Shown here piece after piece: positions 7,139-43,116 of a DNA stretch of 46,650 nt. This stretch comes from a virus (taxonomy: Duplodnaviria; Caudoviricetes), in IMG/VR virus record IMGVR_UViG_3300046710_000270, positions 1-46,650 of that record. One strand, 5' to 3'. Made by a program: the position numbers and the translations under genes. The number at the start of each line of letters is the position of its first letter. Position 1 is the stretch's first letter. The notes under the pieces are model-generated. The model worked only from the letters and a program-made list of their open reading frames with translations. It did no database searches and was not told where the DNA came from.

Positions 7139-7260
7139 GAGAAAACCCCGGGGTTCCAGGGTTCCAGGGTTCCAGGGTTCGAGGGTTCGAGGGTTCGAGG
7201 GTTCGAGTATTTACCCTTGAGATCTTGACCCCTTGACCCCTTGACCCCTGTCTTTTTCAT
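7135..7260 (-). CDS. 41-aa repeat-derived bridging mini-ORF
   Basis: ATGA overlaps with both neighbours; spans the repeat element at 7150-7250. Confidence 0.45.
   Translation of the reverse strand: MKKTGVKGSRGQDLKGKYSNPRTLEPSNPGTLEPWNPGVFS
7150..7250. repeat. GGGTTC(C/G)A / CCCCTTGA element
   Basis: Shares 45 bp (1 mismatch), including the central spacer, with the element at 6439-6483. Confidence 0.95.
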
Positions 7261-10962: not shown

Positions 10963-11054
10963 ATTATTGATTACTGATTATTGATTACTAACTGCCGGCA
11001 CCCCTCGACCCCTTGAACCCTTGAACCCCTGACCCCTTGAACCCTTGAACCCTG
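10963..11054. repeat. Intergenic ATTGATT heptamer repeat plus CCCTTGAA repeat
   Basis: Seen directly; 10977-10996 is identical to 26591-26610. Confidence 0.85.
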
Positions 11055-11060
11055 TCCTTC

Positions 11061-13094: not shown

Positions 13095-13221
13095 GGTCGA
13101 CCTCCGGTGAAAAAGAGGGTTCCAGGGTTCTAGGGTTCCAGGGTTCCAGGGTAACTGCTTGACCCCTTGACCCCTTGGCCCCTATGCTTTCCCTGACCCC
13201 TTGGACCCTATCCTTATCCAT
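13087..13221 (-). CDS. 44-aa repeat-derived bridging mini-ORF
   Basis: MDKDRVQG...LEPWNPRTLEP...EVDRD; 8-nt overlaps with both neighbours. Confidence 0.4.
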   Translation of the reverse strand: MDKDRVQGVRESIGAKGSRGQAVTLEPWNPRTLEPSFSPEVDRD

Positions 13222-13717: not shown

Positions 13718-13830
13718 AAACCACCAAGAGGTTCCAGGGTTCCAGGGTTCGAGTCTAACCCTTGACCCCTTGGACCCTTGGACCCTTGGACCCTTGGACC
13801 CCTGGCACCTTGAACCCTGTCTTCTATCAT
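13705..13830 (-). CDS. 41-aa repeat-derived bridging mini-ORF
   Basis: ATGA overlap upstream, 13-nt overlap downstream; spans the repeat at 13728-13819. Confidence 0.4.
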   Translation of the reverse strand: MIEDRVQGARGPRVQGSKGPRGQGLDSNPGTLEPLGGLCIP

Positions 13831-17026: not shown

Positions 17027-17323
17027 CTAAGACAGCGTGTAGTACCTGTCTATCCTTTTGATCGTCGCGAGAAACGGGATCTCCGATCCGTATTTCTCGA
17101 CCTGTTCGATGAGGATTGACGAGCCGCTGAAGAGCACGTACCTTTGCGCGTCCAGCGCGAATTGTAAGGTGAGGCAGCGGCCGGAGCCTTCGTCCGTGAA
17201 CTTACTCCCTCGTACCTTGAAGCCGGTGACAAGGATCTCCTTATTGATGACGCTGTCGATCTTCATCTTTGCCCCGTCCAGGGGCGTGATTTCGGTAGCA
17301 AACTCGCTGAACCGCTTAGGCAT
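17027..17323 (-). CDS. RT-coupled 98-aa protein, candidate DGR accessory factor
   Basis: MPKRFSEF... start overlaps the RT stop by 8 nt. Confidence 0.7.
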   Translation of the reverse strand: MPKRFSEFATEITPLDGAKMKIDSVINKEILVTGFKVRGSKFTDEGSGRCLTLQFALDAQRYVLFSGSSILIEQVEKYGSEIPFLATIKRIDRYYTLS

Positions 17324-18323
17324 GAAACGCCTCCGCAAGGTCGGGCAGGCGCAGCTTCTCTGCGAGGTGGCGCGTCTGGGCCCACTGCATCCACCCGGAG
17401 ATCGAGGCGATCGAGGAGCGGAACTGGTCAAGGGTGATCTTGCCCGCGTTGAGAAGCTCGGGCAGGAGGCGCACGCGCCGCATGATCCTATGGGCGGTGG
17501 ATTTCCGCAGCAGGACATGGGATGGGAAGTGGCGGTACCCGAGGAAATCCACGCCCTGGGAAACGGGGAAGACCTCGCACGTGCTCATGGTCAGCTGGAG
17601 CCTCTCGGCGAGAAAATGGGCAATAGCGTCTTTCATCGCGGAGAGAAGCCCCTTGTCATTGTGAAAGAGGAGAAAGTCGTCGCAGTAGCGCAGGTAATCC
17701 CTGATTTTCCAGACGTGCTTGAGGTACTGGTCAATCTCATTGAGGTAAAGATTGCCAAGCCACTGGCTGGTATAGTTGCCGATCGGGATGTTCGCAGAAC
17801 CTCCAGGGCTGTAAATGATGTCCCGGAAGAGCGCGAGCGTGCGGCTGCATTTGATCTTCCGCTCAACGAGTGCGTAGGCGATGGCATGTTTCATCGACGG
17901 GTAGAACTTCGCGATGTCGCACTGGAGGCAGTAACGGTTCCTGCGGACGAACTCCATGGTGCGTCTGCTTCCTGCGTGGATGCCCTTACCCTTCCTGCAG
18001 GCGTAGGAATCATGGATGAAGAGCCCCTCCCATATCGGTTCGATCACGTTCATGAGGGCATGGTGGACGATCCGGTCAGGCGCGAAGGGGAGGATGTAGA
18101 CGAGACGCTTCTTCGGCTCATAGATCGTCTTGGTCCGATAAGAAGACGTCCGGAAACACCCGTCCACGAGGCTTTGGCGAATCCGTTCCAGCCCATGGGC
18201 AGCATCGAGGTCGAAGGTTTTCACCACTCTCTGCCAGGTCTTGCCACGCCGGGCGTCCCTGTAAGCGAGGACCAGATTCTCTGCGCTCGCAATCTTCTCA
18301 AACAGGTTGCCATGCCGTTTCAT
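17316..18323 (-). CDS. DGR reverse transcriptase
   Basis: DRIVHHA, SYACRKGKG, DIAKFYPS, PIGNYTSQ (GxxxSQ), RYCDD and DFLGY motifs; adjacent TR/VR pair. Confidence 0.97.
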   Translation of the reverse strand: MKRHGNLFEKIASAENLVLAYRDARRGKTWQRVVKTFDLDAAHGLERIRQSLVDGCFRTSSYRTKTIYEPKKRLVYILPFAPDRIVHHALMNVIEPIWEGLFIHDSYACRKGKGIHAGSRRTMEFVRRNRYCLQCDIAKFYPSMKHAIAYALVERKIKCSRTLALFRDIIYSPGGSANIPIGNYTSQWLGNLYLNEIDQYLKHVWKIRDYLRYCDDFLLFHNDKGLLSAMKDAIAHFLAERLQLTMSTCEVFPVSQGVDFLGYRHFPSHVLLRKSTAHRIMRRVRLLPELLNAGKITLDQFRSSIASISGWMQWAQTRHLAEKLRLPDLAEAFHA

Positions 18324-18446
18324 GTTATTTGGACCGGGAGGCGTTTGCCTGCGGCTACTAGTCGCCCGGTCCCTCCGTTGTGTGTTTTGCCGGGATAATC
18401 CCGACAGGGCCCATAGATCCAGCCAGGAGTTTTACTCACACCTGTA

Positions 18447-18560
18447 TCCGCTGCGAACCGGCTGCCGATATTCGAATTCGTATTCCAGCGATAGTTATTC
18501 GCATTCCGAGCCTGCGAACCGCAATTCGCGCTGTTATTCCAATTCGCGCCCGCCAGCAAC
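18447..18560 (-). ncRNA. DGR template repeat (TR)
   Basis: 114-bp copy of the target 3' end, rich in AAY codons; 20 of 21 mismatches to VR fall at TR adenines. Confidence 0.95.
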
Positions 18561-18632
18561 CGTCGATCTGTGAGCCGTGAGCCTGTTAAAAAACTTCGCG
18601 TGCTACGTTCCATTAGTTTCCCGTTTTCCGTG

Positions 18633-20537
18633 CTATGCTGCCTCCGCCGCGAACCGGCCGCCGTAATTCGAAGCCGTACCCCAGCGATAGCTATTCGCAC
18701 CCCGAGCCCGCGAACCGCAAGCCGCGCCGCCACCCCAACCCGCGCCCGCCAGCAACTTCGCGTCGCCGTAAACACCCTGGGAGTATAGCTGGCCTTTGCT
18801 TCCGCCGATCGTTTTCATGGAAAAAGCCTGAGACAGGAGCGCCAGGTCGAGTGTCCCGTTGGCAGTGGTAGGGCTCGTGAACTCCAGCCTGTCGTCAGCT
18901 CCATCGTCATAGTTTACCGCCACGCCGGCCGTTGCTGCCGCCGCGCTGTACGTTATCTGTAGAAAATAAGCCGGGTTGCTCGATGGTACATAGGCGTTTT
19001 TTAACCTGCCGAGAACTGCCAGCAATCTTGCGGGCTGAGTCGCGTCCTCGTCAAAGTAAACCTGGAGGCCGCCGCCGGTTGCCGCGTCTGCGTCATGCTT
19101 AATGAGTATTTTGTAGTCCGTCCCGAACGCAACCCACTTATCAACCGCGGCTGCCGGCATATTGCAGCAAAGATAAGCCTCACCTGTTGCCAGATATTTG
19201 ACGTAGATCGGGTTGCCGCCCGGACTGGCCGCATGGGTAATCGTCGCCGTCTTTACCGCCGTCGCGATGGTCCCGTCATAGCTCACTTGAAAACCATTCT
19301 CGTCGAGCCACTGATACATAACGCCAGCGCAATCCTCGCAGCCACCATTGGATATCATGCGTCGGCCTAACGTTCCGGATACCTCAGTTCCGCCATTGGC
19401 AACACCCAATTTTAGGGCTGCTGCACAATCGTTTGGTGTCCCGGCGGTAATCACAACCGATGCAGATAGCCCGCAACTCCCGGGAGACGTAATAACATAC
19501 GTTGAACCGTAGGTAACCGTGAGTCCTCCAGCCCAAGCGAATGCTGCCCGTATCGCAACCTGAAGGGCCGCTGCAATCAACGCGCCCGTATTCTTTCCGG
19601 ATGGATTAAACGAGACAGCCACTGGAGTCAGACCGTTCAGCGCAACCGTTAATGATTGTGGATTGGTAGCCGCCGAAATATCTGTCGAAGGAGATCCGGC
19701 ACTCGTTGATGTCCCTGACGTGCCACTACTGTCCCGATGCCCTCCGGCGGTGACCGGATCGGAAGAGCCTGCAATATTCGTCTGCTCGTTCGAGCCTGCG
19801 GCAGCCGCCTGGAACTCAGCGTCTTTAAGGAGCCGCTTTTTCACCGCTGCACCATCATCAACAAAATCATTCCAGGTGCGGGTGTCGGAGATAGTTGCGC
19901 CGTTAACGGAGGCGGTTGACGTGCCGGTACCGGAGGCGGGATAGATGTCCACCCACTTGCCAATAGCGGCCAAGTAGACCATGCCCTCGGGCGATGCGGA
20001 TCGTGGCCGGAATTTGAGGTCCCAGATGGAAGCAGGCAATATATCGCCCGCGACAAAGCCCGTGAGGTCGTGGCCGGAGATGGTGCCGATATCGGCACAA
20101 AGACAGTGGAAGCCGCCGAGTTTACGGGTTGTGGTCCCCGAGTAAGCCGCGCAATTTGCGGGAGGCGTACCGGAAGGCGCCGTGCTGTTGGCCGATAGGA
20201 TAAAGATGGGGTTGATTCCGGTAATCGGCTGGCAGGCGTAAAGGTAGAAGTCCTTACCAGCGCGGTTTGCCGCGACCGTATAGTCTGTGGTTGTGTTGTC
20301 CCAGTTTGCGGCAACGGAGAGGTCGATGCGACCCTGGGCCGAGATCGCGTACCCGCCATCGTTGATATTGACGGAGAGGCGATCAGGCGAAAGGAGCAGA
20401 TAGCGGTTTGCCGCTGTCGAGTAGGGGGTAGCGAGTTTCCAGAACTGATTCAGGGCGATGGCGCTCGACGTGCCGGAGCGCTCGTAATGGCCGGGAAGTA
20501 TGGCGAGGTTTGCAAGAAGCTGGTCTACTATGTTCAT
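18633..20537 (-). CDS. DGR target, Mtd-like fibre with C-type lectin-fold C-terminus
   Basis: GGFH, SIWDLKFRP, P.GM and W.DIY motifs resembling BPP-1 Mtd; G...QW and G.R motifs of the CLec/FGE fold; VR at C-terminus. Confidence 0.88.
   Translation of the reverse strand: MNIVDQLLANLAILPGHYERSGTSSAIALNQFWKLATPYSTAANRYLLLSPDRLSVNINDGGYAISAQGRIDLSVAANWDNTTTDYTVAANRAGKDFYLYACQPITGINPIFILSANSTAPSGTPPANCAAYSGTTTRKLGGFHCLCADIGTISGHDLTGFVAGDILPASIWDLKFRPRSASPEGMVYLAAIGKWVDIYPASGTGTSTASVNGATISDTRTWNDFVDDGAAVKKRLLKDAEFQAAAAGSNEQTNIAGSSDPVTAGGHRDSSGTSGTSTSAGSPSTDISAATNPQSLTVALNGLTPVAVSFNPSGKNTGALIAAALQVAIRAAFAWAGGLTVTYGSTYVITSPGSCGLSASVVITAGTPNDCAAALKLGVANGGTEVSGTLGRRMISNGGCEDCAGVMYQWLDENGFQVSYDGTIATAVKTATITHAASPGGNPIYVKYLATGEAYLCCNMPAAAVDKWVAFGTDYKILIKHDADAATGGGLQVYFDEDATQPARLLAVLGRLKNAYVPSSNPAYFLQITYSAAAATAGVAVNYDDGADDRLEFTSPTTANGTLDLALLSQAFSMKTIGGSKGQLYSQGVYGDAKLLAGAGWGGGAACGSRARGANSYRWGTASNYGGRFAAEAA
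18643..18756 (-). repeat. DGR variable repeat (VR)
   Basis: Ungapped 114-bp alignment to TR at the 3' end of the target CDS. Confidence 0.95.
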
Positions 20538-21601: not shown

Positions 21602-22006
21602 TCATTCTCCGTAGAAGTAGGTCGCTTCGATTTTCGCCGTCTCGCCGTTCGTGTAGGCGATGCAGAGGAGATTAGCGACATTCTGCTGACCCGGGACGAC
21701 CCACCACATGCCGGCCGTTAATTCATGGCCTACACCGTTCGCGCCCTGGGTGGGCGTGGAGCCGTCCATGCAGCAGCGCACCGACTTCGACTCGACGGAG
21801 ATCAGCGCCTTCGTGGCCTTATGGCCCGACCAGAATCCCGACGACTTTGTGATCTTCGAGGCGGTCGGTCCTGTGGCCGTATCGCCGACGGTGAGCGTCT
21901 CCCGGTCGGCGGCGGATCCGGCGGCGAGAGCGAGCGAGACGCAGATCAGGCCGAAAACAAGCAGCGTGATGGTCAGGCCGATCAAATATGCTTTGAGTCT
22001 GGACAT
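21602..22006 (-). CDS. Secreted beta-rich hypothetical protein
   Basis: Signal peptide ending ALA; VRCCMDGSTPT...GHEL. Confidence 0.7.
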   Translation of the reverse strand: MSRLKAYLIGLTITLLVFGLICVSLALAAGSAADRETLTVGDTATGPTASKITKSSGFWSGHKATKALISVESKSVRCCMDGSTPTQGANGVGHELTAGMWWVVPGQQNVANLLCIAYTNGETAKIEATYFYGE

Positions 22007-23505
22007 TGGAAACCTCCGTTAACGAAAGGGTTCGAGGGTTCGAGGGTTCGAGGGTTTCGACTTGACCCCTTGACCCCTTGGCCCCTATTTAGAATCAGCC
22101 CCGCCCACACGATGGTAACGGCCGCGATGGGCACTATCTGCCACGAGAAAAAGACGAGCGCCGTGAGGCAGGAAGCGAGAAAGCCGTAAAAAGGAAGGGT
22201 TCGAGGGTTCCAGGGTTCGAGTCTGACCCTTGGCCCCTTGAACCCTTTCCTCAGTATATCCCCTACCGCCCACAGCAGCAGCAACACACCGGGGATCCCC
22301 GCCGCAAAGAGCATCTCTATGAATTCGTTGTGCGCTTCGAGGTAGACCTCTTTTGCAGCGCCGTTCTCGAAATACTTTTGATCGCCCTTACTCCAGCGCA
22401 TGGCCACGGCGATCAGCGCTTTCTGGCCTTCGACCTCGCGCCATAATTGCGCGCGCAATTCCGGCGCGACCAGGTGAGGCGAGACGAGGAGCGGGATCAC
22501 CGTAGAGTACTGCCCGAATCCCCAGCCGAGCCACGGCTTGTTAAGCGCGGCGCGGACGCTCTTTTCCCACGCGACGCCCCGTGTATCCATTTGATACCGC
22601 CATTCATGAGCGCCCCTGCCGACAACGGCCCAATAACCGAGCAGAGCGAGGACGAGCAGGGCGAGAAGGCCGATGGACGTCCGCTTCGCTCGGACGAGGG
22701 ACGATCGCTCCCTTCGCGGGATGGGAAGGAATGAAGATCTCCGCGATTTTGCCCTTTTCGCTAGGACGAAAAGGCCGCCGATCGCACACGCTGCGACTGC
22801 ACCGACCAGGTTGCGGGTCATGAGGATCCCCGCCACAGGAACGAAGGAGAGCCAGCGCCAGCGGCCCCGCCAGAAGGCGGGCAGGCAGCATGCGAGCAGT
22901 GTCGATGTTTCCTCGACGTTGGTCTGTAGACCTATCAGGCTTTTACCGGTAGGGACCAGGGTACGGGGATAGACCGGCAGACCGGCCAGCTGCAGCATCT
23001 GCCAGGCGACGTTCGCCAGGGCGATCACGCAAAGAACGTTCAAAAAAGGGTTCGAGGGTTCGAGGGCACAGGAAAGGGTTCCAGGGTTCCAGGGTTCTAG
23101 GGTTCGAGGGTTTTTCTCGACCCCTTGAACCCTTGGCCTCTGTTCGCTGATGTAGATCAGCGCCATGCCGTAACAGATCGCCGCGAGCGTGAAAAGGATG
23201 GACGTTGACGGGTGCACGCAGCAGACGACTGCGCCCCAGATCCAGAGGAGCCCGACCGGGAGCGACTGGCGCGCAAGTACGACGCCGATCCCTGCCATCA
23301 TCACGTAGGCGAGGATCATGTAGCGCCCCAACCGTAACGACGGCGACGTCGCCCAAAAGCAGGTGACGAGGAGCAGGCCGAAGCAAATCAAGATGGAAGA
23401 TGGAAGATGGAAGATGGAAGTAACTGCCCGGCGCATGTAGCGCGAGGTCTTCCTAGCGAACGCAGTGAGCGATCTCCCTAGCGAGTGCAACGAGCGGTCT
23501 CCCAT
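21982..23505 (-). CDS. O-antigen ligase / O-oligosaccharyltransferase-like (Wzy_C) membrane protein
   Basis: Many TM segments; R...W...PWLGWGFGQY and AHNEFIEML...GIPG motifs; several in-frame repeat insertions. Confidence 0.82.
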   Translation of the reverse strand: MGDRSLHSLGRSLTAFARKTSRYMRRAVTSIFHLPSSILICFGLLLVTCFWATSPSLRLGRYMILAYVMMAGIGVVLARQSLPVGLLWIWGAVVCCVHPSTSILFTLAAICYGMALIYISEQRPRVQGVEKNPRTLEPWNPGTLSCALEPSNPFLNVLCVIALANVAWQMLQLAGLPVYPRTLVPTGKSLIGLQTNVEETSTLLACCLPAFWRGRWRWLSFVPVAGILMTRNLVGAVAACAIGGLFVLAKRAKSRRSSFLPIPRRERSSLVRAKRTSIGLLALLVLALLGYWAVVGRGAHEWRYQMDTRGVAWEKSVRAALNKPWLGWGFGQYSTVIPLLVSPHLVAPELRAQLWREVEGQKALIAVAMRWSKGDQKYFENGAAKEVYLEAHNEFIEMLFAAGIPGVLLLLWAVGDILRKGFKGPRVRLEPWNPRTLPFYGFLASCLTALVFFSWQIVPIAAVTIVWAGLILNRGQGVKGSSRNPRTLEPSNPFVNGGFQCPDSKHI

Positions 23506-24123: not shown

Positions 24124-26565
24124 CTACGTTCCGCCGCTCACCACGCTCTTATCGAAGCCGCGATAGTCCGCGATCTCGAACTCGTACTCGTGGCGGCTCT
24201 TGTACTGGATCTTGTCGGCTACGAACATCTGTCCGACCAGCGGGTTGTCCGCGACGAAGAACTCGGGCTCCCGCCTGCCGTTGATGTAGGCGACTTCCAG
24301 CAATTCCACCTCGGTCGCGTCCGCGATCAGCCCCCAGTCGTTCGTGTCGACGAAGAGCGGGTTGCAGATGATCCGCTCGTGGGCCGAACCGAACTTGCCC
24401 GCGTGCGGGTTGGGGGTCGCTGCGCCCGGCCAGGCGGAGTTGAGGCCCTGGGCGGTTTCGAGCGCGTCTCTGGGGCACCAGAGGTAACGCGGGACCAGGG
24501 CAAGGCTTTCGCCCGAGTCCTGCTCCTCCTGCGCGTACATGGCTTTGAACCGGTTGGTCAGCGTGGCGATGCCGGTCGAGTCGAGCGTCAGGGCAACCGT
24601 GCCGAGGTTGCCGTGCTCGGTATCCGCGAAGAGCGCGACGCTGTCGCCCTTGTACGTGGCGTTGTTGATGATCTTGTTCCACGCCCTTTTCGCATGCGTG
24701 CGCCGGTGGGCCCGGCCCATCTTGGAGACGAGCTGGGTGATCGTCTTGAGGTCGTCGTTCAGGATGACTTTGCGCGTCACGGTGAGTATCCAGCCTTTCT
24801 GGTTGATCGAGTAAGTGGCCTCGACGTCCGTCGGCATGGTGATCTCCACATAGTCCGCCGTCTCCGGATCCACGTCGGGCACGTCGCCGAAATAGCCGAC
24901 GTTGATGATCTCCAACGTCTTGAAGTTCTCGGCGTTCCGGTAATAGCTGATGATCGCCTCCTCGAAGTAGTTGACGGCCCGGTACTCCTTGAGGAGCCTT
25001 TTGAACATCGAGACCCCGAGCACGTAGGAGAAGCTGTTGGACCTGTACGCCGCGGGCAGGCGCATCATCTGCATGAAGGCCTCACCGAGCCGCAGGCCGT
25101 CCCGGGACGGCACACCCCTGAGCTCGTCGTCGCCAGTGAGCTGTGTATAGGCGCTGCGCAAGCCCTGAAACGCGGGCACGTCCTTGAATTTCTCGTCCGT
25201 GTCGGCGCCGAGCATCTTGTCGATCGCGGCCTGGAGCTTTTCGGGCTCGCTCGTGCCGATCGAGATCCGCAAGCCGCCGACGCCGTTAGGGGCGCCGCTG
25301 CCCGTCAGCTTATCCGCGATCTCTTTGTATTCCTTGATCGCGGCGCGCAGGGTCTCCGGCTCGAAAACCTTGCCGGAAAACTCATTCTCGACGCGCTTGC
25401 GGAGGAGGTCGGGTAGATTCGACTCCCTGAGCTCCTCGACCAGGACAGTCGCGCACGAGAGCAATTTTTGCGCGTCGTCGAAGGTTTTCTCCGCCTTGGC
25501 GACCAGGGTCTTAGCCTCGCTGGTCGAGATCTCGGTCAAGGACGCGGTGAGCTTGGCGAGGTATTCCTTGACGTCATCCTTCTGGGTCTTGCCGCCCGCT
25601 GCCACGAGCACCAGCTCCTGCACCGCTTCCTCAGTGACGCTTTCGCCCTGGGCTTCAAGGGCTTCGATCTTCTCTTTCAAATCCGGCCGCTGGCTTTTCA
25701 GGGCGGCCAATAACTGCTTCCACATAACGCCCTCCTTTTGGCCCGCCTTTCCGGCCGCGGCCACTCTCAGCAGTTTTCCCCCTGCTATGGGGTCATAAAC
25801 CACGTCGACTGAATCGACGCGGACGATCCTCTGCACTTGCTTCGGCGATTTTCCACCTTCGGCCACCTGGGCGACCACGTCGTGCGAGAGCCCGATCAGG
25901 TCCCGCTTGCCCCTCGTGAACGCATCGACCGCCATGTCGCGCAGCCAGGACGCCGATTTGAGGATATTAAGCGTGCCCTCCAGCGCGGTCGCGGTCGGCC
26001 GGACATCAGACAGCCAGCCCACCAGATCGCGCACGCTCTTGCCGTAAGGGTTCGCGGGATTATCGTGCTGCCCCTGGGTGAGCGCGAAAACACGGGCGCC
26101 CTCGTAGACGGGAGCGGCCGCCGCGAGAACCGGCATGGAATAGTTTGCGATGCCCTGCCTGTCCACACCCGACTCCACGATCTGGACGTGCCATTTGTAG
26201 CCGTAATCGGGCGACGCGGGCACCTGTGCCGCGCTGAGCCGCGAGAACGAAGAGACGCGCAACTCTTCCCCGGCTGTCATGGTATGTTCGCCCACCTTGT
26301 GACGCTCCTCCATCATGCGCAACCGCTTCTCGATCAACATCTGGTCAGCCTCATCGTATTCGGCCCTGTTCTCGGGCCGGTCCCAGTAGCTGGCCGCGCT
26401 CGCGGTGTGCGCCGCGTCGGGGCAGGGATAGGCGTAGTTGACCGGGTCGAGCCACTCGTCGTCCGGGACGGACGCAAACTCGGCGGGTTTCGTCACGTGG
26501 CCGTTATCGCGCACCGCGATGCCGTACTTCTGAGATCGGGCAGCCTGAGCTTCTTTCTCGTTCAT
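24124..26565 (-). CDS. Protease/scaffold-major capsid fusion protein
   Basis: 813 aa; N-terminal extra domain, protease-like GLSHD...VDSVDVVYDPIAGG, acidic helical scaffold, Mu gpT-like C-terminus (DYRGFDKS). Confidence 0.85.
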   Translation of the reverse strand: MNEKEAQAARSQKYGIAVRDNGHVTKPAEFASVPDDEWLDPVNYAYPCPDAAHTASAASYWDRPENRAEYDEADQMLIEKRLRMMEERHKVGEHTMTAGEELRVSSFSRLSAAQVPASPDYGYKWHVQIVESGVDRQGIANYSMPVLAAAAPVYEGARVFALTQGQHDNPANPYGKSVRDLVGWLSDVRPTATALEGTLNILKSASWLRDMAVDAFTRGKRDLIGLSHDVVAQVAEGGKSPKQVQRIVRVDSVDVVYDPIAGGKLLRVAAAGKAGQKEGVMWKQLLAALKSQRPDLKEKIEALEAQGESVTEEAVQELVLVAAGGKTQKDDVKEYLAKLTASLTEISTSEAKTLVAKAEKTFDDAQKLLSCATVLVEELRESNLPDLLRKRVENEFSGKVFEPETLRAAIKEYKEIADKLTGSGAPNGVGGLRISIGTSEPEKLQAAIDKMLGADTDEKFKDVPAFQGLRSAYTQLTGDDELRGVPSRDGLRLGEAFMQMMRLPAAYRSNSFSYVLGVSMFKRLLKEYRAVNYFEEAIISYYRNAENFKTLEIINVGYFGDVPDVDPETADYVEITMPTDVEATYSINQKGWILTVTRKVILNDDLKTITQLVSKMGRAHRRTHAKRAWNKIINNATYKGDSVALFADTEHGNLGTVALTLDSTGIATLTNRFKAMYAQEEQDSGESLALVPRYLWCPRDALETAQGLNSAWPGAATPNPHAGKFGSAHERIICNPLFVDTNDWGLIADATEVELLEVAYINGRREPEFFVADNPLVGQMFVADKIQYKSRHEYEFEIADYRGFDKSVVSGGT

Positions 26566-26662: not shown

Positions 26663-26911
26663 TTACCCGGCGTCCTTTGCCGGGGCCGGGGCCTTGCCGC
26701 TCTCCGATACCTTATGCTTCATGCCGTTTCGCAGGACGATGACGACCGTGTCGCCATACTCCCCGAAGGACATCACATCCGCCGGTTTCGCCTGCCGCTC
26801 GTAGGGCGTCGATTTGACCGTCTCCCTCCCGGTGTTCTGGTCCTTGACTTTCTTCTGCGTCGCGCCCGTCATCATCAAGCCGTCCAGCCACTTCTTATCA
26901 AGCTCTGCCAT
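26663..26911 (-). CDS. Hypothetical protein
   Basis: MAELDKKW start after GGAGG; upstream extension is repeat-derived. Confidence 0.65.
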   Translation of the reverse strand: MAELDKKWLDGLMMTGATQKKVKDQNTGRETVKSTPYERQAKPADVMSFGEYGDTVVIVLRNGMKHKVSESGKAPAPAKDAG

Positions 26912-26976
26912 ACTCACCCTCCTCGTTTTTCGCTTCCCTCTTCCGAGCGAAGCGGTCTTCCCTCTTCCATCGGTCT

Positions 26977-27000
26977 TTTCACGCCCACCGGGCGTGAAAG
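26977..27000 (-). promoter_or_regulatory. Candidate bacterial SECIS element
   Basis: UUUCACGCCC-GGU-GGGCGUGAAA stem-loop starting 11-12 nt after the in-frame UGA at 27012-27014. Confidence 0.7.
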
Positions 27001-27779
27001 GGTATGCTGTCTCATCCGCAATTGATCGTCTCCTCGATGGGCGCTCCCGGGTCGCGCGGGTATAGCATGTCGATCCCGCCGATTCTGAACGGCTGATCCA
27101 CCGGGACATGCTGGCCGTTCGCCGCAACGTGGGCGGGACGCGCCACTTTCGGGTGGCCCGCATGGAGCCATTGTTTCTCCAGCCCGTCCACGGACTCCGC
27201 CGCCTGATCCATGCGGAGCTGCGTGGCCTCGGAAAAGACCCTGCCCATCTCCGTCTTCGTGATCACCTCAGCCCTCGCCGCGATCGATTTGAAAATGCTC
27301 GAATCGTCGAGATTTTCTCCGATGGCTTTTGCCACGTCGGCCGGCGTCTTGCCCCCGAGCACCCCGAGCGTCAACTCTCCTTTGACCCGGTCCCACGCGG
27401 CGGCGCTGAGGCCGCCGATCCTGTGGAACGCATAATCCTTCAGGGTGTCGAGCACGGAGGTGGAGAGCAACATGCCCCCGACGTTTAGTTGCCCTACGGT
27501 TTCATCCACAAGCGATTTGCCCTGAACCCACGAGGCGTCGAGATTGCCGCCGATCTGCCTCTGCGCCGCTACGCGGTAATCATCGATCTGCGCCTGGATG
27601 GCGTCGAGGTACTGTCTGAGGTGGTAGGTATCCCACGAGCTGATGGCCGCCTTGCCCAGCTCCGCGCGCACTTGCTGCTGCAATTCCTCAAGCAATGACA
27701 GCATCGAGCCGGTCGCTGTCCGGATCCCGGCGTCCTTCTCGCGGATGATGCGTTTGATCGTGGCGTTTAGGGAAGGCAT
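26979..27779 (-). CDS. Mu gpF-like minor head protein, predicted UGA read-through (INCG-U-DSIPFHARWA)
   Basis: RAEVITKTE, KQWLH, RPAH...NGQ...PF and YPRDP...ETINC motifs; ORF track stops at 27012, extension to 26979 restores CxC. Confidence 0.8.
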
Positions 27780-28033
27780 GGAACCTCCGGAGAGGAAAGG
27801 GTTCGAGGGTTCGAGGGTTCGACGGTTCGAGGGTCAACCCCTTCAACATTGTTTTTGCGAATTTGGCCCTGTGGCGCGCGTTTGCCGAAAAGTGGGGTAC
27901 TACTACCTTTGAAGCGCACAAGGGGTGTTATAACTATGTCAATGCTCAACGTCATCGAATCTAGGGGATGCCTGGAGTGACCAACCCCCTTGGATTCCGG
28001 CGTTCGCCGGAATGACGGTACTGGCCGGTTCAC
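27767..28033 (-). CDS. 88-aa bridging ORF containing REP and GGGTTCGA elements
   Basis: ATGA overlap with the portal stop and 13-nt overlap with the gpF start. Confidence 0.4.
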   Translation of the reverse strand: MNRPVPSFRRTPESKGVGHSRHPLDSMTLSIDIVITPLVRFKGSSTPLFGKRAPQGQIRKNNVEGVDPRTVEPSNPRTLSSPEVPCLP

Positions 28034-29595
28034 TTCGCCCCTCCGTTTATGAGATCGCGACGGCTGATGCGTTTGCCTCCAACGGTGGCGAAATCACTCG
28101 TCGCAAAGTCTCCTGACCGTTGCTTCCCGCTTCCATCTTCCATCTTCCTAGCGGCGTCAGCCGCGGTCTTCCCTCTGTCTTTATAGTCTTCATATCCCTT
28201 CTTCGCCGCCTGTTCCTCCAGGTTGGCCCTGACCTCGTCCAGGTCGATATCGACGCCGGTGAAACTGACGATGGAGGCCCAGAGTTTGCGAGCGGTCTCT
28301 TTGTCGACCCATCCCTGCATCTCCGCCCCGGCGATCGCGGTCGCCATCTGGGCCGCCGCCGTCGAGAATTTCGCGATGTCCTTTGATGCCATCTCAGGCG
28401 TGGTGACCGAATACTGCTTGGCCTCGTCGTCCGTCACCCGGAGGTACCGCGCGTTGCGCGCCTGGCGCACCTGGTAGCCCAGCATATCCTCCAGGATGTA
28501 TTTGACCTGCAACTGTTTGCGCCCGAGCATCTTGAGCGCGGGCAGATCCATCTCGGATGCCGTGGCGCGGTTCACGTCGCCGCCACCGCCGAACCAGTGC
28601 TCGGGGTAGCCCCAGCGGCCCATGATGTGGTTCCGGAAAAGACGGGCGCCCGTGGATGCGTCAAGGGCCTCCAGCTTCGGGGCGCTCGGGGTGAGCGTCA
28701 CTTTCTCGTTGTGGCCGAAAACGGAGCCCGGTTTTTTGCTGAACTGCGCGATCTGCTCTTTGATCTCCTTATCGCCTCCGCCCGTCACGAGGAGGTCCCA
28801 GATGAACGCGTTCTGGAGGGGCCACTTGTCAGCATAGTCGAAAAGGAACTGCTCGTAGGCGTCGAGCCAGTCCGCCGTGGGGAGCAATGACGAACGGCCG
28901 CGCGGGGAATTGGTGACGTTGTTGATGGCGTAGAAAAAGCAGTCGCCGTCGGTGAATTGATTGCGCAGGGTCTTCGCCCCTGCGGAGAGGACGAAGTCGG
29001 CTTCCTCCGGGAGAATAGTGCGATACGCCTTCGCGGGGGTGTCCACGAGGTATCCGCCGATCGATCCGGTCCAGGGCCTCACGAGCACGCCGATGGGGAT
29101 CTTCACGTTCTCGGGATCGGTGATCACATCCGATATCGCCGCCGGATCGACGTACCCTAAGCGTACGCGCCCGGTCTGCGCTGCCGTGAACGCCGGGAAG
29201 CAGAGCTCGCCGAAGATGTGCAATTCATCGATGTGCTTCGGGAAGTAGAGCGGCATGCGATTCACGGGGTCATTCCAGAAGCCGTCGAGCACTGCCTTCA
29301 CGTCCTCGTTCTTCGCTTCGTAGGGCAGCCCCTCCGCGACAATAAATGATGTCGTGATGTCGATCAGCCAGCCGGCGAGCGGGTTCGTCTGCCACAACCA
29401 GTAGGCGATCTCGATCATCCGGTCCTGTTCGATGGGCAGGAGGTTGCGGTCGGCCTGGGTGGTCAGCTTGCGCCACAGCGCGTCCTCACTCGCGATATTG
29501 GGCGACGAGAGCGAGGCAGCGGCGAGGCGCTCGGTTACTTTCGCGTCGATGAGAGGGCCGAAGAAAGCGCCCACGAGGCGTTCTTTAAGTTTCAT
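28030..29595 (-). CDS. Portal protein
   Basis: Follows terL; NPLA, FGEL, RGRS.L and G.PEHWFG...NRATA motifs. Confidence 0.85.
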   Translation of the reverse strand: MKLKERLVGAFFGPLIDAKVTERLAAASLSSPNIASEDALWRKLTTQADRNLLPIEQDRMIEIAYWLWQTNPLAGWLIDITTSFIVAEGLPYEAKNEDVKAVLDGFWNDPVNRMPLYFPKHIDELHIFGELCFPAFTAAQTGRVRLGYVDPAAISDVITDPENVKIPIGVLVRPWTGSIGGYLVDTPAKAYRTILPEEADFVLSAGAKTLRNQFTDGDCFFYAINNVTNSPRGRSSLLPTADWLDAYEQFLFDYADKWPLQNAFIWDLLVTGGGDKEIKEQIAQFSKKPGSVFGHNEKVTLTPSAPKLEALDASTGARLFRNHIMGRWGYPEHWFGGGGDVNRATASEMDLPALKMLGRKQLQVKYILEDMLGYQVRQARNARYLRVTDDEAKQYSVTTPEMASKDIAKFSTAAAQMATAIAGAEMQGWVDKETARKLWASIVSFTGVDIDLDEVRANLEEQAAKKGYEDYKDRGKTAADAARKMEDGSGKQRSGDFATSDFATVGGKRISRRDLINGGAK

Positions 29596-29693
29596 AGCGC
29601 GCCTCCGTTCCGGGTTACGGGTTCCGGGTTACGGGTTCCGGACTTTAACGCGCAACTCGCAACTCGTAACTCGTAACGTCTTTTGGCTCTCAT
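29592..29693 (-). CDS. 33-aa repeat-derived bridging mini-ORF
   Basis: MRAKRRYELRVASC...GGAL; ATGA overlaps at both ends. Confidence 0.45.
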   Translation of the reverse strand: MRAKRRYELRVASCALKSGTRNPEPVTRNGGAL

Positions 29694-31384
29694 GCTGCTT
29701 GCCTCCTGCCGAACATCCGGCCCATCAGGTTGCGCAGACTGCCCTGCCGGTCCGCATGGTAGTCTCCCTCTCCGGCTTCAGAACTGACGGTGCACGCCCT
29801 GATGAGCCCCTTCTCGATCAGCCTCTTGAGCATCTCTGTGGCGTCGGGACCGTCGTCGTGGCCGCCCTTGCCCTTCGGACGATAATAGATGAAGTGCTTG
29901 ATCAGCTCGGACATGCCATAGCGGCGGAAGCGGATCCATCCATTCTTGATCCAGGGCTGGAGCGTGACGATGCGCAAATCCTTGTCGACGTTCGGCTTGT
30001 CTCCAGTGATGTTGAGGGTGAGCCCGCGCTTGTGCGCCTCCTTCTCGACACTGTCCTTGAAGAATTCCTGGAACTGAATCTCCTCGATCTGGAACTCCGT
30101 GAAGGGACCGCGCTCGTGGTACGTGAGGATATCGTCCGTGATCTTGTCCGGGTGGCGCTTCTCGATGTCGCCGATGGTGAGGTAGATCACTCCGTCCTTC
30201 ATCTTGCCGCCGACGATCGCGGAAGGGTCGCCATGCTTCGACTTCTTGCCCATCGAGGGATCGCACGCGCCTGCATGCGGGATACCGGCCAGATCCACGT
30301 CCTCATCATCCCAGTATTGGATCCACTCCTCGAGGAAGACCGCGTCCTCCGGGTTGATCGGCTCGTTCTGTTTCTCGGAGTAGAAATAGGCGGGCCCCTC
30401 CGAGACATACATCTTCATCAGGTAGTAGTAGGGCTCGCGCTCCGGCCAGAGCACCTCCGTGCCTGCGAGCATTGCCGCCTTGTGCGACGCAAAGAATGCG
30501 TCCGCCTGACTTTCCGCTTCTTCCTTGCCGATGGTGATGTCCGAGAAGATCGCCTCCCATCTTTCCCAGAGCTTCGATTGCGACCAGGTCAAAATCGCTT
30601 TGAATTTCTTACCTTTCCAGCCCGGTTTTTTGAGGAGGCCGGCGAGGAGTGAATCATAGTGCAGGATTGTACCGTCCACGATGTAGACCGTGTCCGGTTG
30701 GCCGATCTTCATGAGCGCCTTGAAAAACCACTTTTCGAATTTCTTGCGCTGATCGGGGGATTCGACAGCCTCATCACTTTCGAGATCATCTCCGATAACA
30801 AGGTCGGGCCGTTTGGACCCGTGGCGCATGCCCCTGAGCTTCTGGCCGGCACCGGCGCCGCGAACCTTGCATCCGTTTCTCGTGATGATCGTATCCGCGC
30901 GCCAGACGGGGCCCTCGCCGCACGCTTCCGGGAAGTCCTGCTTCAGCCGCTCGTTCGTTTCCAATTCCGCTTTGATAAAGGAGAGGAAGTCCTGGGCCTG
31001 CAGGGCCGTTTCCGACACGGGAAGAATGAATGTGCGATACTTATAGACCAGGCACCAGATGGGCAGAATAAGTGTGGTCCAGGTCGATTTAGCGTTACCG
31101 CGCGGAGCCGCGTCTGCTTCGCGATCTCCATCGCCCGTCTCGATTGCGCGGAAGATCATGGCCGGGTACCGCTCGCAGAAATATTTGTGGAGTGCGGACG
31201 ATGCCGTCGTCAGGTAGTGCGGAAAATAGGTGGTCCCGAAGAATTCGAGATCTCCGGCGCCGCGCTTGATCCGAACGTCGCGTGCCTTCTTATCATCCTT
31301 GAAAGGCTTCGCCTTCGATTGGATAAGCGAACGCAGAGCCTCAAGCTCGCGGTCGAATCGCTTCTCCTGCGGGGTCCTCGGCAT
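29690..31384 (-). CDS. terL: Terminase large subunit
   Basis: APRGNAKST Walker A; RPDLVIGDDLE Walker B; DPS and HDDGPDA nuclease motifs. Confidence 0.95.
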   Translation of the reverse strand: MPRTPQEKRFDRELEALRSLIQSKAKPFKDDKKARDVRIKRGAGDLEFFGTTYFPHYLTTASSALHKYFCERYPAMIFRAIETGDGDREADAAPRGNAKSTWTTLILPIWCLVYKYRTFILPVSETALQAQDFLSFIKAELETNERLKQDFPEACGEGPVWRADTIITRNGCKVRGAGAGQKLRGMRHGSKRPDLVIGDDLESDEAVESPDQRKKFEKWFFKALMKIGQPDTVYIVDGTILHYDSLLAGLLKKPGWKGKKFKAILTWSQSKLWERWEAIFSDITIGKEEAESQADAFFASHKAAMLAGTEVLWPEREPYYYLMKMYVSEGPAYFYSEKQNEPINPEDAVFLEEWIQYWDDEDVDLAGIPHAGACDPSMGKKSKHGDPSAIVGGKMKDGVIYLTIGDIEKRHPDKITDDILTYHERGPFTEFQIEEIQFQEFFKDSVEKEAHKRGLTLNITGDKPNVDKDLRIVTLQPWIKNGWIRFRRYGMSELIKHFIYYRPKGKGGHDDGPDATEMLKRLIEKGLIRACTVSSEAGEGDYHADRQGSLRNLMGRMFGRRQAA

Positions 31385-31432
31385 TATGCCTTTCTCTCCA
31401 TGACCCATGACCCATGACCCATGACCCGGTCT

Positions 31433-39845: not shown

Positions 39846-40066
39846 TGTGTGCCTCCTTTTGGCGCGAGCGGACAGGTGCCGCATTTGTGCGGGTGCCGGA
39901 AAGACTCGACCGTGCACACGCCGAGATTGATTTTGCCCTTGCGCGCCAGACAATAAATAAAGTCAGTCATTTGCGCCCTGCGGGCGCCGTGATTCGCTGA
40001 TGCGTTAACGGACTTGGTCGTATCAACGTGTAATCCGTCAACGTGCAACGGCCGTTGGCCCCTCAT
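39842..40066 (-). CDS. Small Cys-rich protein
   Basis: ATGA overlap with the ATPase stop; C...C...CGTC; alternative internal start MTDF. Confidence 0.45.
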   Translation of the reverse strand: MRGQRPLHVDGLHVDTTKSVNASANHGARRAQMTDFIYCLARKGKINLGVCTVESFRHPHKCGTCPLAPKGGTQ

Positions 40067-41352
40067 AACGCCCTCACTACTTCTTCCGTCACGCACGCTT
40101 CCCCCATCTCGCACGCGAGATTCATTGCCCTGGCCGCGTAGTTGTTGACCTGGCCGGGCGTGGCGAGGCTGATGGGGTCGCCGGTGCGTCCGTCCTTGTC
40201 CGATAAGCGTTTGCCGAGCATCACGATCGCGTCGTGCGTGAAGACGTTCGTGATGTCCGCGCCCGTGCGCTTGAATTTAAAAGTCAGGTACGATTCGATA
40301 TTGCCGTTGAGTCCCTTGATCTCGGCGATCTGAATGCGGCGGACCGCCTCGCGCATGTGTGGATAGGCCTCGTCATCCAGCTTCTCTTTCAGCTCGCCCT
40401 GGCCGATCAGGATGATGCCGAGGAGCTTCGTATAGCCGTCCTCCAGCTCATAAAACCTTTTGAGCAGCTTGATCACCTGGAAGGTGAGATCGTGCGCTTC
40501 TTCGATCATCATCACGTGACGCAGCCCCTGCTTGTGGCGGCTGAGCAGGAGACGGTGCACCTGGCGACTCTTGCCCTCCAGGTTCATGAGCGGCTTCTCC
40601 CCGGATATGTCGTGGATGATGGCGACGCACAGGGAAGAGGCCGTGACGCGGTTCTTGTCGAAGATCTGCGGGTAAATAATGCGTATCTTGCCTTCGCGCT
40701 GGAGAGCAAGGGCGACCTTGCGCCGGATGACGGACTTGCCTGACTGCACCTCGCCGATTACGGCCAGAAAACCCTGGTGCTTGGCTGCGTCGAGCATTGC
40801 GGCCTCGATGTAGCGGTGGTCCTCTGACATGAAGACGTCTTTGTCATCCAGGACATCATTGACAAATGGACTGCGGAATAGCTTAAAATGGCGTTTCGTC
40901 GGTTCGTTGATCATAGTCACCTCGTATGCATTGATTTTCTCTCCGTTTCTCCCTCTCCACTCGGGGGAGAGGGCAGGGGTGAGGGTCAAAGGGTCGCCCG
41001 GCTGCATGGGTCTGATTTTCCTCGTGGCGCCTGTGCGGGCATGTGCGCCCACGGGCATCGTCCTGCCGCAGTCCTTACTGAGCGGCATCCAGATCCGATC
41101 GAGCTTTATGCGCCGTTCGGCCATCCACCGGATGGCGGCCGCGTTCTTGCGGATCTTCTCCTCGACCAGGTGCTTGAACTCCGGATTATCGATGGGCGAA
41201 TACGGGTAATGGTTCAGCACCAGATTGACCGTGACTCGCTTCACACCGGTACCCTCGGCGAGCGCTCCCTGGGTGATGTCGCACTCCGCGGCGAGCTGCT
41301 TCAGGATGATCGGCTTGCGTTTCATGGCGTAGACCGCTGCGGGATGTCCCAC
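40063..41352 (-). CDS. Transposition ATPase (ExeA-type, MuB analogue) with N-terminal HTH
   Basis: GEVQSGKS, IEEAHDL and ILIGQ.EL motifs. Confidence 0.9.
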   Translation of the reverse strand: MGHPAAVYAMKRKPIILKQLAAECDITQGALAEGTGVKRVTVNLVLNHYPYSPIDNPEFKHLVEEKIRKNAAAIRWMAERRIKLDRIWMPLSKDCGRTMPVGAHARTGATRKIRPMQPGDPLTLTPALSPEWRGRNGEKINAYEVTMINEPTKRHFKLFRSPFVNDVLDDKDVFMSEDHRYIEAAMLDAAKHQGFLAVIGEVQSGKSVIRRKVALALQREGKIRIIYPQIFDKNRVTASSLCVAIIHDISGEKPLMNLEGKSRQVHRLLLSRHKQGLRHVMMIEEAHDLTFQVIKLLKRFYELEDGYTKLLGIILIGQGELKEKLDDEAYPHMREAVRRIQIAEIKGLNGNIESYLTFKFKRTGADITNVFTHDAIVMLGKRLSDKDGRTGDPISLATPGQVNNYAARAMNLACEMGEACVTEEVVRAL

Positions 41353-41370
41353 AATATCACCTCCTTCTTC

Positions 41371-43116
41371 TCAAGCGTTTCGCGGCAGGGCCGCAGTCTC
41401 TTCGCTGTGGCCGCTGCTTCCCTCTTCCCTCTTCCATCTTCCATCTTCGATTTCTCGGATCACTTCGTCCGCCCTCGTCGCGTCGATCCACTCCCCGAGC
41501 TCGGCGCGCAGGGCTTGGTTCATCTCGGGTGTGACGCGCCCGGTGCGGTGGATCAGGTCTTTCAGGAAAAGTGTAAAAGGGATCTGGCGGGCCGCTATCG
41601 AGCGGTCCACCTCGATGGGCGTGCCCTTGCGCGGCATATACTCCGCGTCGACCGTGTCCGCGTGGTGGCCGAAGACGCGCAGGCCCTCGAAGGGGACGGC
41701 ATCTTTAGGCCGCTTTCCGTTCTCGTCGGGCTCGCCGTAAGCCATGGTATCGAACTCCTTGACGGCCTTCTGTGTCAGGCTCTCCGGCTGCGCCTTGTAT
41801 TCCTGGCCGATGATGGCCGCGTTCGCGTTATAGACGCCTTCTTCGCGCGGGAGAAGCCGGACGGGCTGCGCCTCATACGTTTCGTCGTTGTAACGCACGC
41901 CTATCGCTTCCGGGGTATAGGGCTTGATGATGATTTGCACCCGCGAGCGGCCGGGCAGAACCCCGGGCACGTGCTTGAGGCTGAAATAATCGCCTTTATA
42001 ATGGATCGCATACTCGCGGTCGACCGTGCGCACCATCTCATCGTCAGTGTAAGAGAGAAGCTCGTTGAGCAACTCGCGGTCGGGCAGTTCGCGGAGCTGC
42101 TCGGCACGGATCAGCAGCCAGCAGGCCGTGCGCGTCATCTTGTGGCGTCGGTGAACCCGCTCGGCGTTATGGCGTACCATGTAGTCTTCGGCCCAGGCAT
42201 TGAGATCCGCCTCCGTGTGCGCCGGCTGGATCCGCAGGCCCGATTCGAACCAACCCTCGATAACGTCATGTATGGTCTCGACCGCGCCCTGCCGTGATGC
42301 GTTATAGGGGTTGCCCTTGGGTACGTCGACTTCGAGCCGTGAAAGGAAGCTCACGATGGCGCGAGATATGTTTGCCGAGCCCGCGTCCATCAAGAGGATG
42401 AGGGGCACGCCGCGGAACGGATAGCGCGCGTCCTCTTTCCTGCCCCAGGCGCGGCACACGAAGTCGAAGAGATTGAGCATCGTCTCGCCCGTGGTGTTGT
42501 AATAGCGCCAGTAGATGGCCCCGGAGAAATGATCCACGAGGGCGTAGCGGAGCAGGCGGGTTTTTATTTTAGCGAAGTTCGCGGGCTTGTTTTTGTAGTA
42601 GTCGCGCTCGTCCATCATGGCCAGGCGCTGACCTCGCTTGCCATCCCGCAGGTAGTATTGAATACATACGGAAGCGTCGAGGACGTGCACGTGATTGGGA
42701 TGGAGCGAGCGCATGGGGGTGTAAGGTCGGTCGGCCTTAAGGGCGGCGGCGGTGATCTGCCGCTCGCGCAAAAGCCCGTGCATGCGAGACGTCGATATCT
42801 GGCCGGGCTCGATGATGCCGCTATCGGCGGCGATTTCGAGGGCGCGGGCCACGGGCATGATCGGCCCCTTAACCTCGCGTCTCGTCTCGTGGATCAGGCC
42901 GGCGACAAACTTCATCTGCTCGACGTTGATGCCGGACTTGAGCGTACCCTTATCGGCGCGGGGCTTGCGGCCGGAGTCAAAGCCACACTCTTTGGCGAGG
43001 CGATAGAGGTGCGTGCGCGATATTCCGGTGAGGCCGGCATACGTCGAGATGATTGCCGAACGGTCGGGCGGAGCCGCGGTTGTAAGCTCGTGGGTCATCT
43101 CTTCGCGCCAGGGCAT
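41371..43116 (-). CDS. DDE transposase (B3-like)
   Basis: RKPRADKG, HPNHVHVLDAS, VDHFSG, GVP...MD.GSAN and GAVE motifs. Confidence 0.92.
   Translation of the reverse strand: MPWREEMTHELTTAAPPDRSAIISTYAGLTGISRTHLYRLAKECGFDSGRKPRADKGTLKSGINVEQMKFVAGLIHETRREVKGPIMPVARALEIAADSGIIEPGQISTSRMHGLLRERQITAAALKADRPYTPMRSLHPNHVHVLDASVCIQYYLRDGKRGQRLAMMDERDYYKNKPANFAKIKTRLLRYALVDHFSGAIYWRYYNTTGETMLNLFDFVCRAWGRKEDARYPFRGVPLILLMDAGSANISRAIVSFLSRLEVDVPKGNPYNASRQGAVETIHDVIEGWFESGLRIQPAHTEADLNAWAEDYMVRHNAERVHRRHKMTRTACWLLIRAEQLRELPDRELLNELLSYTDDEMVRTVDREYAIHYKGDYFSLKHVPGVLPGRSRVQIIIKPYTPEAIGVRYNDETYEAQPVRLLPREEGVYNANAAIIGQEYKAQPESLTQKAVKEFDTMAYGEPDENGKRPKDAVPFEGLRVFGHHADTVDAEYMPRKGTPIEVDRSIAARQIPFTLFLKDLIHRTGRVTPEMNQALRAELGEWIDATRADEVIREIEDGRWKREEGSSGHSEETAALPRNA

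Follow-up and report, generated by a model that had tools for sequence, protein, structure and literature searches.

A predicted selenocysteine codon in the MuF minor head protein gene of a Mu-like phage

The MuF gene and its surroundings

The window analysed here, that is, the whole stretch of DNA under study, is a complete 46.6-kb virus record and belongs to a Mu-like phage, classed as transposable because it carries genes for a Mu-type transposase and a MuB-like ATPase. The genes for the terminase, the portal protein, a MuF protein, a conserved protein of 82 amino acids and a protease-capsid fusion follow one another in this order (Table 1). A tblastn search of 221 sequences found the 82-aa gene in 84 of them; it has no family in Pfam, NCBIfam or PHROG. 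An Rfam search of the window returned no match, and the relatives found among the cultured phages of INPHARED are all distant (best 37%).

Table 1. Positions of the genes and sequence elements discussed in the text
Feature	Position	Strand	Remarks
Mu-type transposase and MuB-like ATPase genes	40063..43116	-	phrog_310, phrog_296
Terminase large subunit gene	29690..31408	-	phrog_38, E 1e-106
Portal protein gene	28030..29595	-	upstream neighbour of MuF; phrog_10963, E 3e-45
MuF (Mu gpF/SPP1 gp7-like) minor head protein gene	26979..27779	-	266 codons if UGA is read through
His217 codon	27129..27131	-	invariant His/Cys/Cys set with Cys254 and position 256
Cys254 codon	27020-27018	-	invariant; first Cys of motif
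In-frame UGA, codon 256	27012..27014	-	second Cys of N-C-G-C motif; predicted selenocysteine codon
Read-through tail DSIPFHARWA, ten codons	26982..27011	-	family consensus DH[VI]P[YF]HxxW
SECIS-like hairpin	26977..26999	-	10-bp stem, GGU loop; spans tail codons 5-10 and true stop
Predicted true stop codon TGA	26979..26981	-	within 3' arm of hairpin
Conserved 82-aa gene	26663..26911	-	real next gene downstream of MuF, starts at 26911
Protease-major capsid fusion gene	24124..26565	-	PF25209, E 2e-27; phrog_4523

The MuF ORF of 255 aa runs on the minus strand from 27779 to 27012 and ends I-N-C-G-UGA. If this UGA is read through, the product has 266 aa and ends in INCG-U-DSIPFHARWA; an earlier note, made from the sequence alone, had given the minus-strand reading AAT TGC GGA TGA GAC AGC ATA CCC TTT CAC GCC CGG TGG GCG TGA (INCG-UGA-DSIPFHARWA-stop), and the sequence is exactly as it claimed. 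The protein scores below the cut-offs of PF04233 (25.7 bits, cut-off 29.6; E 2e-5) and TIGR01641 (22.7 bits, cut-off 39.65; E 1e-4), and matches the PHROG head morphogenesis family with an E-value of 8e-25. A Foldseek search of BFVD gave 149 matches at E ≤ 0.001, mostly to minor capsid or head morphogenesis proteins, the best with E 3e-10 and TM values of up to 0.78. By PHROG match, fold and place beside the portal gene, this is a MuF (gpF/gp7) protein.

Contigs of sequencing runs X5 and X6 span the UGA codon without differences, and the contig of run X1, which may be the window's own source, is likewise identical over it; run X4 holds no piece across the codon. As the contigs agree and TGA recurs at 17 other loci, a sequencing or assembly error was rejected. 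The runs in which the window occurs carry the label peat metagenome, and no RNA run is listed among them. Directly after the MuF stop, positions 26933-26981 belong to a dispersed purine-rich repeat family (D8), whose matches to many unrelated contigs in the peat runs suggest a host-type extragenic repeat.

Several other elements of the window were noted. A diversity-generating retroelement, a known system, occupies positions 17316-20537 and comprises a reverse transcriptase (17316-18323), an Mtd-like target (18633-20537) and a pair of 119-nt repeats (18442-18560 and 18638-18756; 81% identity). Tandem units of 7-8 nt make up many intergenic arrays, more than is usual in the genome of a phage, at 6294-6510, 7118-7277, 10984-11072, 13092-13193, 13728-13829, 22017-22257, 23037-23144, 27788-27833 and other sites, with units such as AGGGTTCC/AGGGTTCG, then CCCTTGA-type units. 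A gene for a 507-aa protein in the late region (21982-23505), with a weak, below cut-off match to O-antigen ligases (Wzy_C; E 2e-4), is possibly a surface-modification cargo.

Codon 256, the tail and the hairpin

From viral, metagenome and genome collections we retrieved 220 loci, which together with the window make 221 sequences. The motif was found in 218 of them, the other three being dropped for lack of a C-terminal match, for an end before the motif and for being out of register (one each), and the 218 collapse to 157 distinct sequences. Codon 256 is TGC in 105 of these, TGT in 34 and TGA in 17, window included, while TAA, TAG and TGG occur in none of the 157. The placement of the UGA at a conserved Cys of gpF, as the earlier note had it, is thus borne out (139 of 157 loci carry Cys), and its proposed check came out in favour as well, since TGC and TGT alternate with TGA and never with TAA or TAG. 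The one remaining locus, L046 (approximately 2741-3560), is an intein-like case: a long insertion lies right before the first Cys of N-C-G-C, with Cys at its start and Asn at its end, followed by C-G-C, and its Pfam intein match is weak (E 1e-3, below cut-off). If this is an intein, Cys254 would be its +1 nucleophile, given the position of the insertion.

An 18th TGA allele, close to that of L015, was found outside the 157-locus count, and a pattern scan of the viral collection in which TAA, TAG, TGA and TGG were all allowed returned five matches, all five TGA and all already known. TGA alleles were seen only at 46% or more identity to the window protein. Among the protein-database matches listed (120 of 240; the window's own protein left out), 37 of the 119 other relatives end exactly at C-G, the stop codon behind these ends not being visible in that source, and 82 go on with C; about 31% of the listed close relatives therefore end at codon 256 and are probably annotated as truncated. 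The best 150 cluster representatives have Cys at position 256 in 148 cases, an end at C-G in one and Trp in one, figures that cannot gauge the spread of truncation at codon 256 because a profile search favours full-length proteins. Among the relatives P0122-P0270, many go on past the motif with long C-terminal extensions, which can reach about 1000 aa and recall MuF fusion proteins.

A quick maximum-likelihood tree of 72 proteins was calculated with codon 256 left out and with 12 short rows omitted, a TGA allele among them. The 16 TGA alleles in this tree call for nine changes, as compared to 14.8 with shuffled labels, and well-supported branches force four of the nine. TGA alleles are clustered on the tree yet interleaved with Cys alleles.

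Close homologues mostly have a stop codon (TGA, TAA or TAG) ten codons past the Cys/TGA codon, and the tails of the TGA alleles seen are all 10-14 residues long; all 17 have Asp first, Pro at position 4 and Trp at position 9. For the 12 TGA alleles with ten-codon tails, pairwise divergence at the three codon positions is 0.24/0.11/0.39 in the tail and 0.20/0.12/0.56 over the nine codons before the UGA, and past the true stop it is equal at all codon positions (0.70/0.68/0.71). The earlier note had named conservation of the peptide after the UGA as a check on its reading, and in the aligned TGA alleles this peptide is indeed conserved and varies like coding DNA. It had also seen a GTG overlapping the second TGA as the start of a coupled mini-ORF. 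The overlap is there; the ORF of 22 codons that it would open overlaps the D8 repeat and matches, among the loci compared, the window alone, and the sequence past the stop diverges equally at all codon positions; the coupled mini-ORF was rejected as unsupported.

AlphaFold2 models calculated with Cys at position 256 (mean pLDDT 91.4 for the whole protein and 93.3 for the domain) place residues 256-261, with high confidence, in a beta strand, the last one of the MuF domain. In alignment A4 (118 sequences, namely 117 Cys alleles and the window read as Cys), W204, R214, H217, P241, C254 and position 256 are invariant, and this invariance suggests that His217, Cys254 and Cys/Sec256 likely form a metal-binding site. 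Searches of solved structures by sequence and by fold, run for the whole protein and for the C-terminal domain, turned up nothing beyond helical-bundle or Z < 4 matches, a null result that is evidence for neither a new fold nor a function.

The tail overlaps a hairpin that the earlier note had described as a perfect 10-bp stem with a GGU loop, starting about 11 nt past the UGA. Stem and loop are as described (26999-26990 paired with 26986-26977), but the stem begins after 12 nt; the GGU loop begins 23 nt past the UGA, i.e. with a spacing of 22 nt. The SECIS of E. coli fdhF begins 11 nt after its UGA and has G/GU in the apical loop. Folded alone, the hairpin reaches -16 kcal/mol (z = -4.2; none of 200 shuffles is as stable); the 55 nt from the codon give a z of -2.5, and a 101-nt stretch including upstream sequence one of only -0.5. 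No terminator was called on either strand, and the hairpin was thus rejected as an intrinsic terminator.

We compared this region in 78 loci of at least 44% identity, 17 with TGA and 61 with Cys. Over the segment from +13 to +36 the mean energy is -10.6 kcal/mol in the TGA alleles versus -4.1 in the Cys alleles (p = 2e-8, a value that ignores relatedness). All 17 TGA alleles reach -6 kcal/mol or less, as opposed to 14 of 61 Cys alleles (11 of 36 Cys alleles with short tails), both threshold and segment having been picked after inspection of the data. Shuffle-normalised values over +1 to +45 point the same way (mean z -1.83 versus -0.63; p 3e-4, relatedness again ignored), and a G followed by G/U at +23/+24 is present in 16 of 17 TGA versus 16 of 61 Cys alleles. 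Where tail codon 7 encodes Ala, it is GCC in 10/10 TGA and in 10/19 short-tail Cys alleles, and where tail codon 8 encodes Arg, it ends in G or U in 11/11 TGA and 8/14 Cys alleles; to judge by these codons, the hairpin constraint extends to synonymous sites. The expectation that the hairpin would occur only with TGA holds as an enrichment and not as exclusivity, given the 14 Cys alleles that form it. The peptide and the stop codon write part of the stem, so that some Cys alleles form the hairpin too, possibly as relics. In six Cys alleles (L003, L073, L093, L176, L196 and L062) the hairpin is still almost perfect at the place of the SECIS; these alleles are possibly recent reversions from Sec or pre-adapted states.

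In the available text of PMC13188914, the bacterial SECIS consensus consists of a loop of 3-9 nt on a stem of 4-16 bp, with G in the first two loop positions, a spacing of 16-37 nt and an MFE of -7.5 or less. With our own implementation of these criteria (not bSECISearch), 14 of the 17 TGA alleles pass, all with a spacing of 21-22 nt and the window among them (loop GGU, spacing 22), compared with 17 of 61 Cys alleles and 12 of 49 ordinary ORF ends of the window; the TGA alleles L001, L077 and L141 fail. The implementation passes ordinary ORF ends and also missed one of four host selD genes, and is thus a loose test both ways. In the stem alignment, 75.6% of cells are paired, a value reached by 2 of 500 shuffles. 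Covariation is modest, with a score reached by 23 of 500 shuffles in the best register and 110 of 500 in the other, the two registers coexisting. The well-supported branches yield only four independent pairs of alleles; on average, hairpin and TGA coincide in 3.7 of these pairs and are opposed in 0.0, which is not significant in a sign test (p = 0.125).

Hosts and proposed decoding of the UGA

Six genome bins contain a TGA allele, and in four of them selA, selB and tRNA-Sec score over the cut-off: G002 (Nitrospiraceae), G003 (Thermodesulfobacteriota), G004 (Anaerolineae) and G207 (class of G002). selD was found in three of the five TGA bins searched (G001-G005), and in G002-G004 SelD itself has an in-frame TGA. 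The earlier note had proposed to check the host for selABCD; for the relatives, four of six bins hold selA, selB and tRNA-Sec, and selA, selB, selD and tRNA-Sec were not found in G001 and G005, where the TGA alleles lie on contigs of 2.9 and 4.7 kb. One of these bins is labelled as an archaeon, and both contigs are likely mis-binned.

The prophage of G002 is syntenic with the window and sits on a 95-kb contig between ilvC and an LL-diaminopimelate aminotransferase gene. The same contig carries an fdhA split at I-UGA-H-S, seen on scanning 51 of 70 ORFs; the GGC loop of its hairpin lies 23 nt from the codon. In G207 the TGA prophage shares a 288-kb contig with the tRNA-Sec gene; the allele closely resembles the one in G002 and does not count as an independent origin. 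On the 14-kb contig of G003, head genes are linked to one or more genes of host type; the G004 contig (5.7 kb) is unanchored. At locus L226 (G003:C477), the head genes, a TGA-allele MuF among them, are directly followed by five opposite-strand ORFs of about 410 aa, one of which matches a branched-chain amino acid binding protein, and by its gene content the locus has the look of a truncated prophage.

Cys-allele bins from this broad clade have selA in 4 of 5 cases, and in 8 of the first 9 of a second set, as opposed to 2 of the remaining 24, from distant-allele bins, with selA over the cut-off. The presence of selA in most same-clade Cys-allele bins makes the Sec machinery look permissive rather than determining. 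The window's MuB-like ATPase has its best named relatives in Syntrophorhabdus/Syntrophorhabdaceae (59-60% identity), and this one gene points to a likely host class, that of Syntrophorhabdaceae-like bacteria. selA is over the cut-off in 90 of 96 genomes of this class, and the five MuF loci found in the 96 genomes are all Cys alleles that had been found before. A search for a host link through the 8-nt tandem repeat unit of the phage matched none of 19 candidate host genomes.

Taken together, these data make it probable, on sequence grounds, that the MuF UGA at the site of an invariant Cys is read as selenocysteine by host SelB, giving a predicted selenoprotein of 266 residues. The codon pattern, the conserved tail, the enrichment of the hairpin and the Sec genes in hosts of related prophages are observed; the read-through, the residue inserted, SelB binding, metal binding, presence in the virion and the host of this phage are what we infer. 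Lying 12 nt downstream and bearing a G-G/U loop, the hairpin would serve as a bacterial SECIS and be bound by host SelB, which would deliver Sec-tRNA(UCA) made by host SelA and SelD; the phage has no tRNA, and the Sec-tRNA is thus taken as host-made. Translation would go on for ten codons to the true stop, and the product would carry N-C-G-U, with Sec256, where the final beta strand of the MuF domain begins, replacing Cys as one ligand of the likely metal site formed with His217 and Cys254. By analogy with SPP1 gp7, a small number of MuF copies would be loaded at the portal and would help infection to begin. Where Sec insertion fails, a product of 255 residues would result, deprived of the predicted core strand.

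Decoding of the UGA as Sec, as put forward in the earlier note, is hence supported by the codon, the tail, the hairpin and the related hosts, the identity of the residue being a prediction. The note's further claim, that the head protein depends on selenium, would apply to the TGA allele only: most relatives use Cys, also in Sec-positive hosts, which makes selenium dependence a property of that allele and not of most relatives. One can also imagine the Sec codon as a checkpoint for selenium and the state of the host, in which the last MuF strand is completed only with SelB, tRNA-Sec and selenium, selenium supply tunes the number of infectious particles, and lineages switch this single metal ligand between Cys and Sec when they change hosts, but this idea is speculative and we consider it rather doubtful.

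Recoding of the UGA to Cys, either through a selC*-type tRNA-Cys(UCA) of the host acting with SelB* or through a near-cognate Cys-tRNA, would yield an ordinary Cys protein and would explain the strict alternation of Cys and TGA equally well. In the available text of PMC5389517, selC* tRNAs are reported from delta-proteobacteria and Nitrospirae-type anaerobes, the host groups encountered here, and suppress opal codons with Cys in E. coli. However, the UCA tRNAs of G002-G004 (one per bin examined) have the scores of a tRNA-Sec, are identified by ARAGORN as SeC and have G-C-C(-A) at their end, with a G discriminator in the place of the U73 of selC* tRNA-Cys (PMC5389517, same text), and each of these bins, which are incomplete, has one selB over the cut-off and no second copy. 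As selC* genomes also hold the full Sec apparatus, according to the same part of PMC5389517, the Cys route would be a fallback and not the main route, and we regard it as unlikely. That the UGA is a true stop or a nonsense mutation, so that a 255-aa protein is made or a dispensable gene is decaying, appears very improbable to us. SPP1 gp7 is dispensable for assembly (PMC6316719, in its available text). TGA is one change away from the Cys codons, with TAG and TAA two changes away only in some cases, which makes TGA the likely product of a nonsense mutation, and signs of decay exist: the TGA allele L020 lies within an apparent truncated prophage, and L028 (G005:C62), also a TGA allele, has a frameshift upstream near codon 215 that may be an assembly error or decay. 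Against this, TGA strikes the second Cys only, the first being invariant in all scored loci (which were located by that Cys), and no TGA allele has moved on to TAA or TAG. The tail, which should drift if it lay behind a true stop, keeps D-H-V-P-Y-H-x-x-W and its codon-position bias in proteins 46-64% identical to that of the window, and its loss would remove the predicted core strand together with the Trp present in 17/17 TGA tails.

Downstream stems stimulate read-through in other viruses. A generic leaky read-through stimulated by the hairpin, with Trp or another residue inserted, could be imagined on the same lines (read-through is treated in the available text of PMC8310308), and Trp does occur at position 256 in one of the 150 best representatives, itself devoid of the first Cys. 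TGG, however, is found at none of the 157 loci. As for a phage-wide reassignment of UGA, TGA is the stop of 21 of the 49 window ORFs (non-overlapping, at least 80 aa), including those of the portal, terminase and transposase, and a window-wide search found no tRNA gene; both reassignment and a phage suppressor tRNA were rejected for these reasons. We give generic read-through and reassignment, taken together, the lowest probability of all, and retain selenocysteine as the preferred reading.

Significance and comparison with known systems

If selenocysteine is indeed inserted, the MuF proteins with TGA would represent a selenoprotein family encoded by viruses of bacteria, in a native particle-assembly protein, and Sec, beyond its part in redox catalysis, would also serve as a likely structural metal ligand within a small domain. 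The coexistence of Cys and Sec alleles among close relatives and in Sec-positive hosts would offer a natural system in which to ask why Sec is kept when Cys works. MuF is among the most common phage proteins whose mechanism is unknown, and its Cys-x-Cys end would stand out as critical for function. For a phage gene with a Sec codon, host prediction would be narrowed to Sec-using bacteria.

NCBIfam selenoprotein models gave no match to the MuF protein. None of the 119 prokaryotic selenoprotein families in Table 1 of a 2026 review (PMC13188914) is named phage, MuF or PF04233, and the words 'phage' and 'virus' are absent from the text of that review as available. The available main texts of BSepDB (PMC13326102), deep-Sep (PMC12013277), SelCysML (PMC13745706), bioRxiv 10.1101/2022.07.06.499078, PMC2398784, PMC5029168, PMC7029224 and PMC12386605 contain no phage selenoprotein, nor did a wider search of literature listings, with supplements outside its scope, bring one up, an obscure prior mention being possible.

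The locus shares with the MuF family, represented by phage Mu gpF and Bacillus phage SPP1 gp7, its place after the portal gene, sequence and predicted-structure matches and the C-terminal H...C-x-C motif. It differs from other MuF proteins in that the second Cys is a UGA, in its short single-domain form, which lacks a toxin extension, and in its scores below the Pfam and TIGR cut-offs. For SPP1 gp7, portal binding and packaging into the virion are known (PMC5576092, PMC6316719), and the available parts of PMC5576092, PMC5512222 and PMC6316719 mention no cysteine motif, metal or selenium.

Viral selenoproteins named in the available text of PMC8310308 are the glutathione peroxidases of the poxviruses molluscum contagiosum and fowlpox. 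In both situations a virus UGA is decoded as Sec by host machinery, which for MuF is a prediction. The poxvirus cases, however, are captured host antioxidant enzymes of animal viruses that use the eukaryotic system, while here the protein is a native phage assembly protein with a predicted bacterial SECIS, and Sec has apparently been gained or kept. The selC* tRNA-Cys(UCA)/SelB* decoding described in PMC5389517, as far as its available text goes, resembles the present case in that UGA stands in the place of Cys and the anaerobes belong to the same broad host groups; it differs in that the host tRNAs here look like tRNA-Sec, with a G discriminator, that selB is single, and that the phage has no such tRNA.

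The closest parallel is offered by bacterial selenoprotein genes, in which a SECIS within the ORF is read by SelB and of which E. coli fdhF is the prototype. As in these, the UGA of MuF is aligned to the Cys of homologues, coding conservation extends to both sides of it, and the hairpin has the features of a bacterial SECIS, with a 3-nt loop whose first two positions have G, followed by G/U, a spacing of 22 nt and an energy below -7.5 kcal/mol; its geometry is close to that of the host fdhA hairpin (loop GGC at 23 nt). The CxU motif is shared with several selenoprotein families listed in the available part of PMC13188914. Unlike bacterial selenoprotein genes, this one is encoded by a phage within a morphogenesis operon, its predicted SECIS overlaps the true stop, and MuF is no known oxidoreductase. 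On the testable features of its sequence, the MuF gene has those of a bacterial selenoprotein gene. The mechanism would be a known one in a new setting, and sequence comparisons support well the prediction of selenocysteine in a head protein of temperate Mu-like phages with host-linked prophages.
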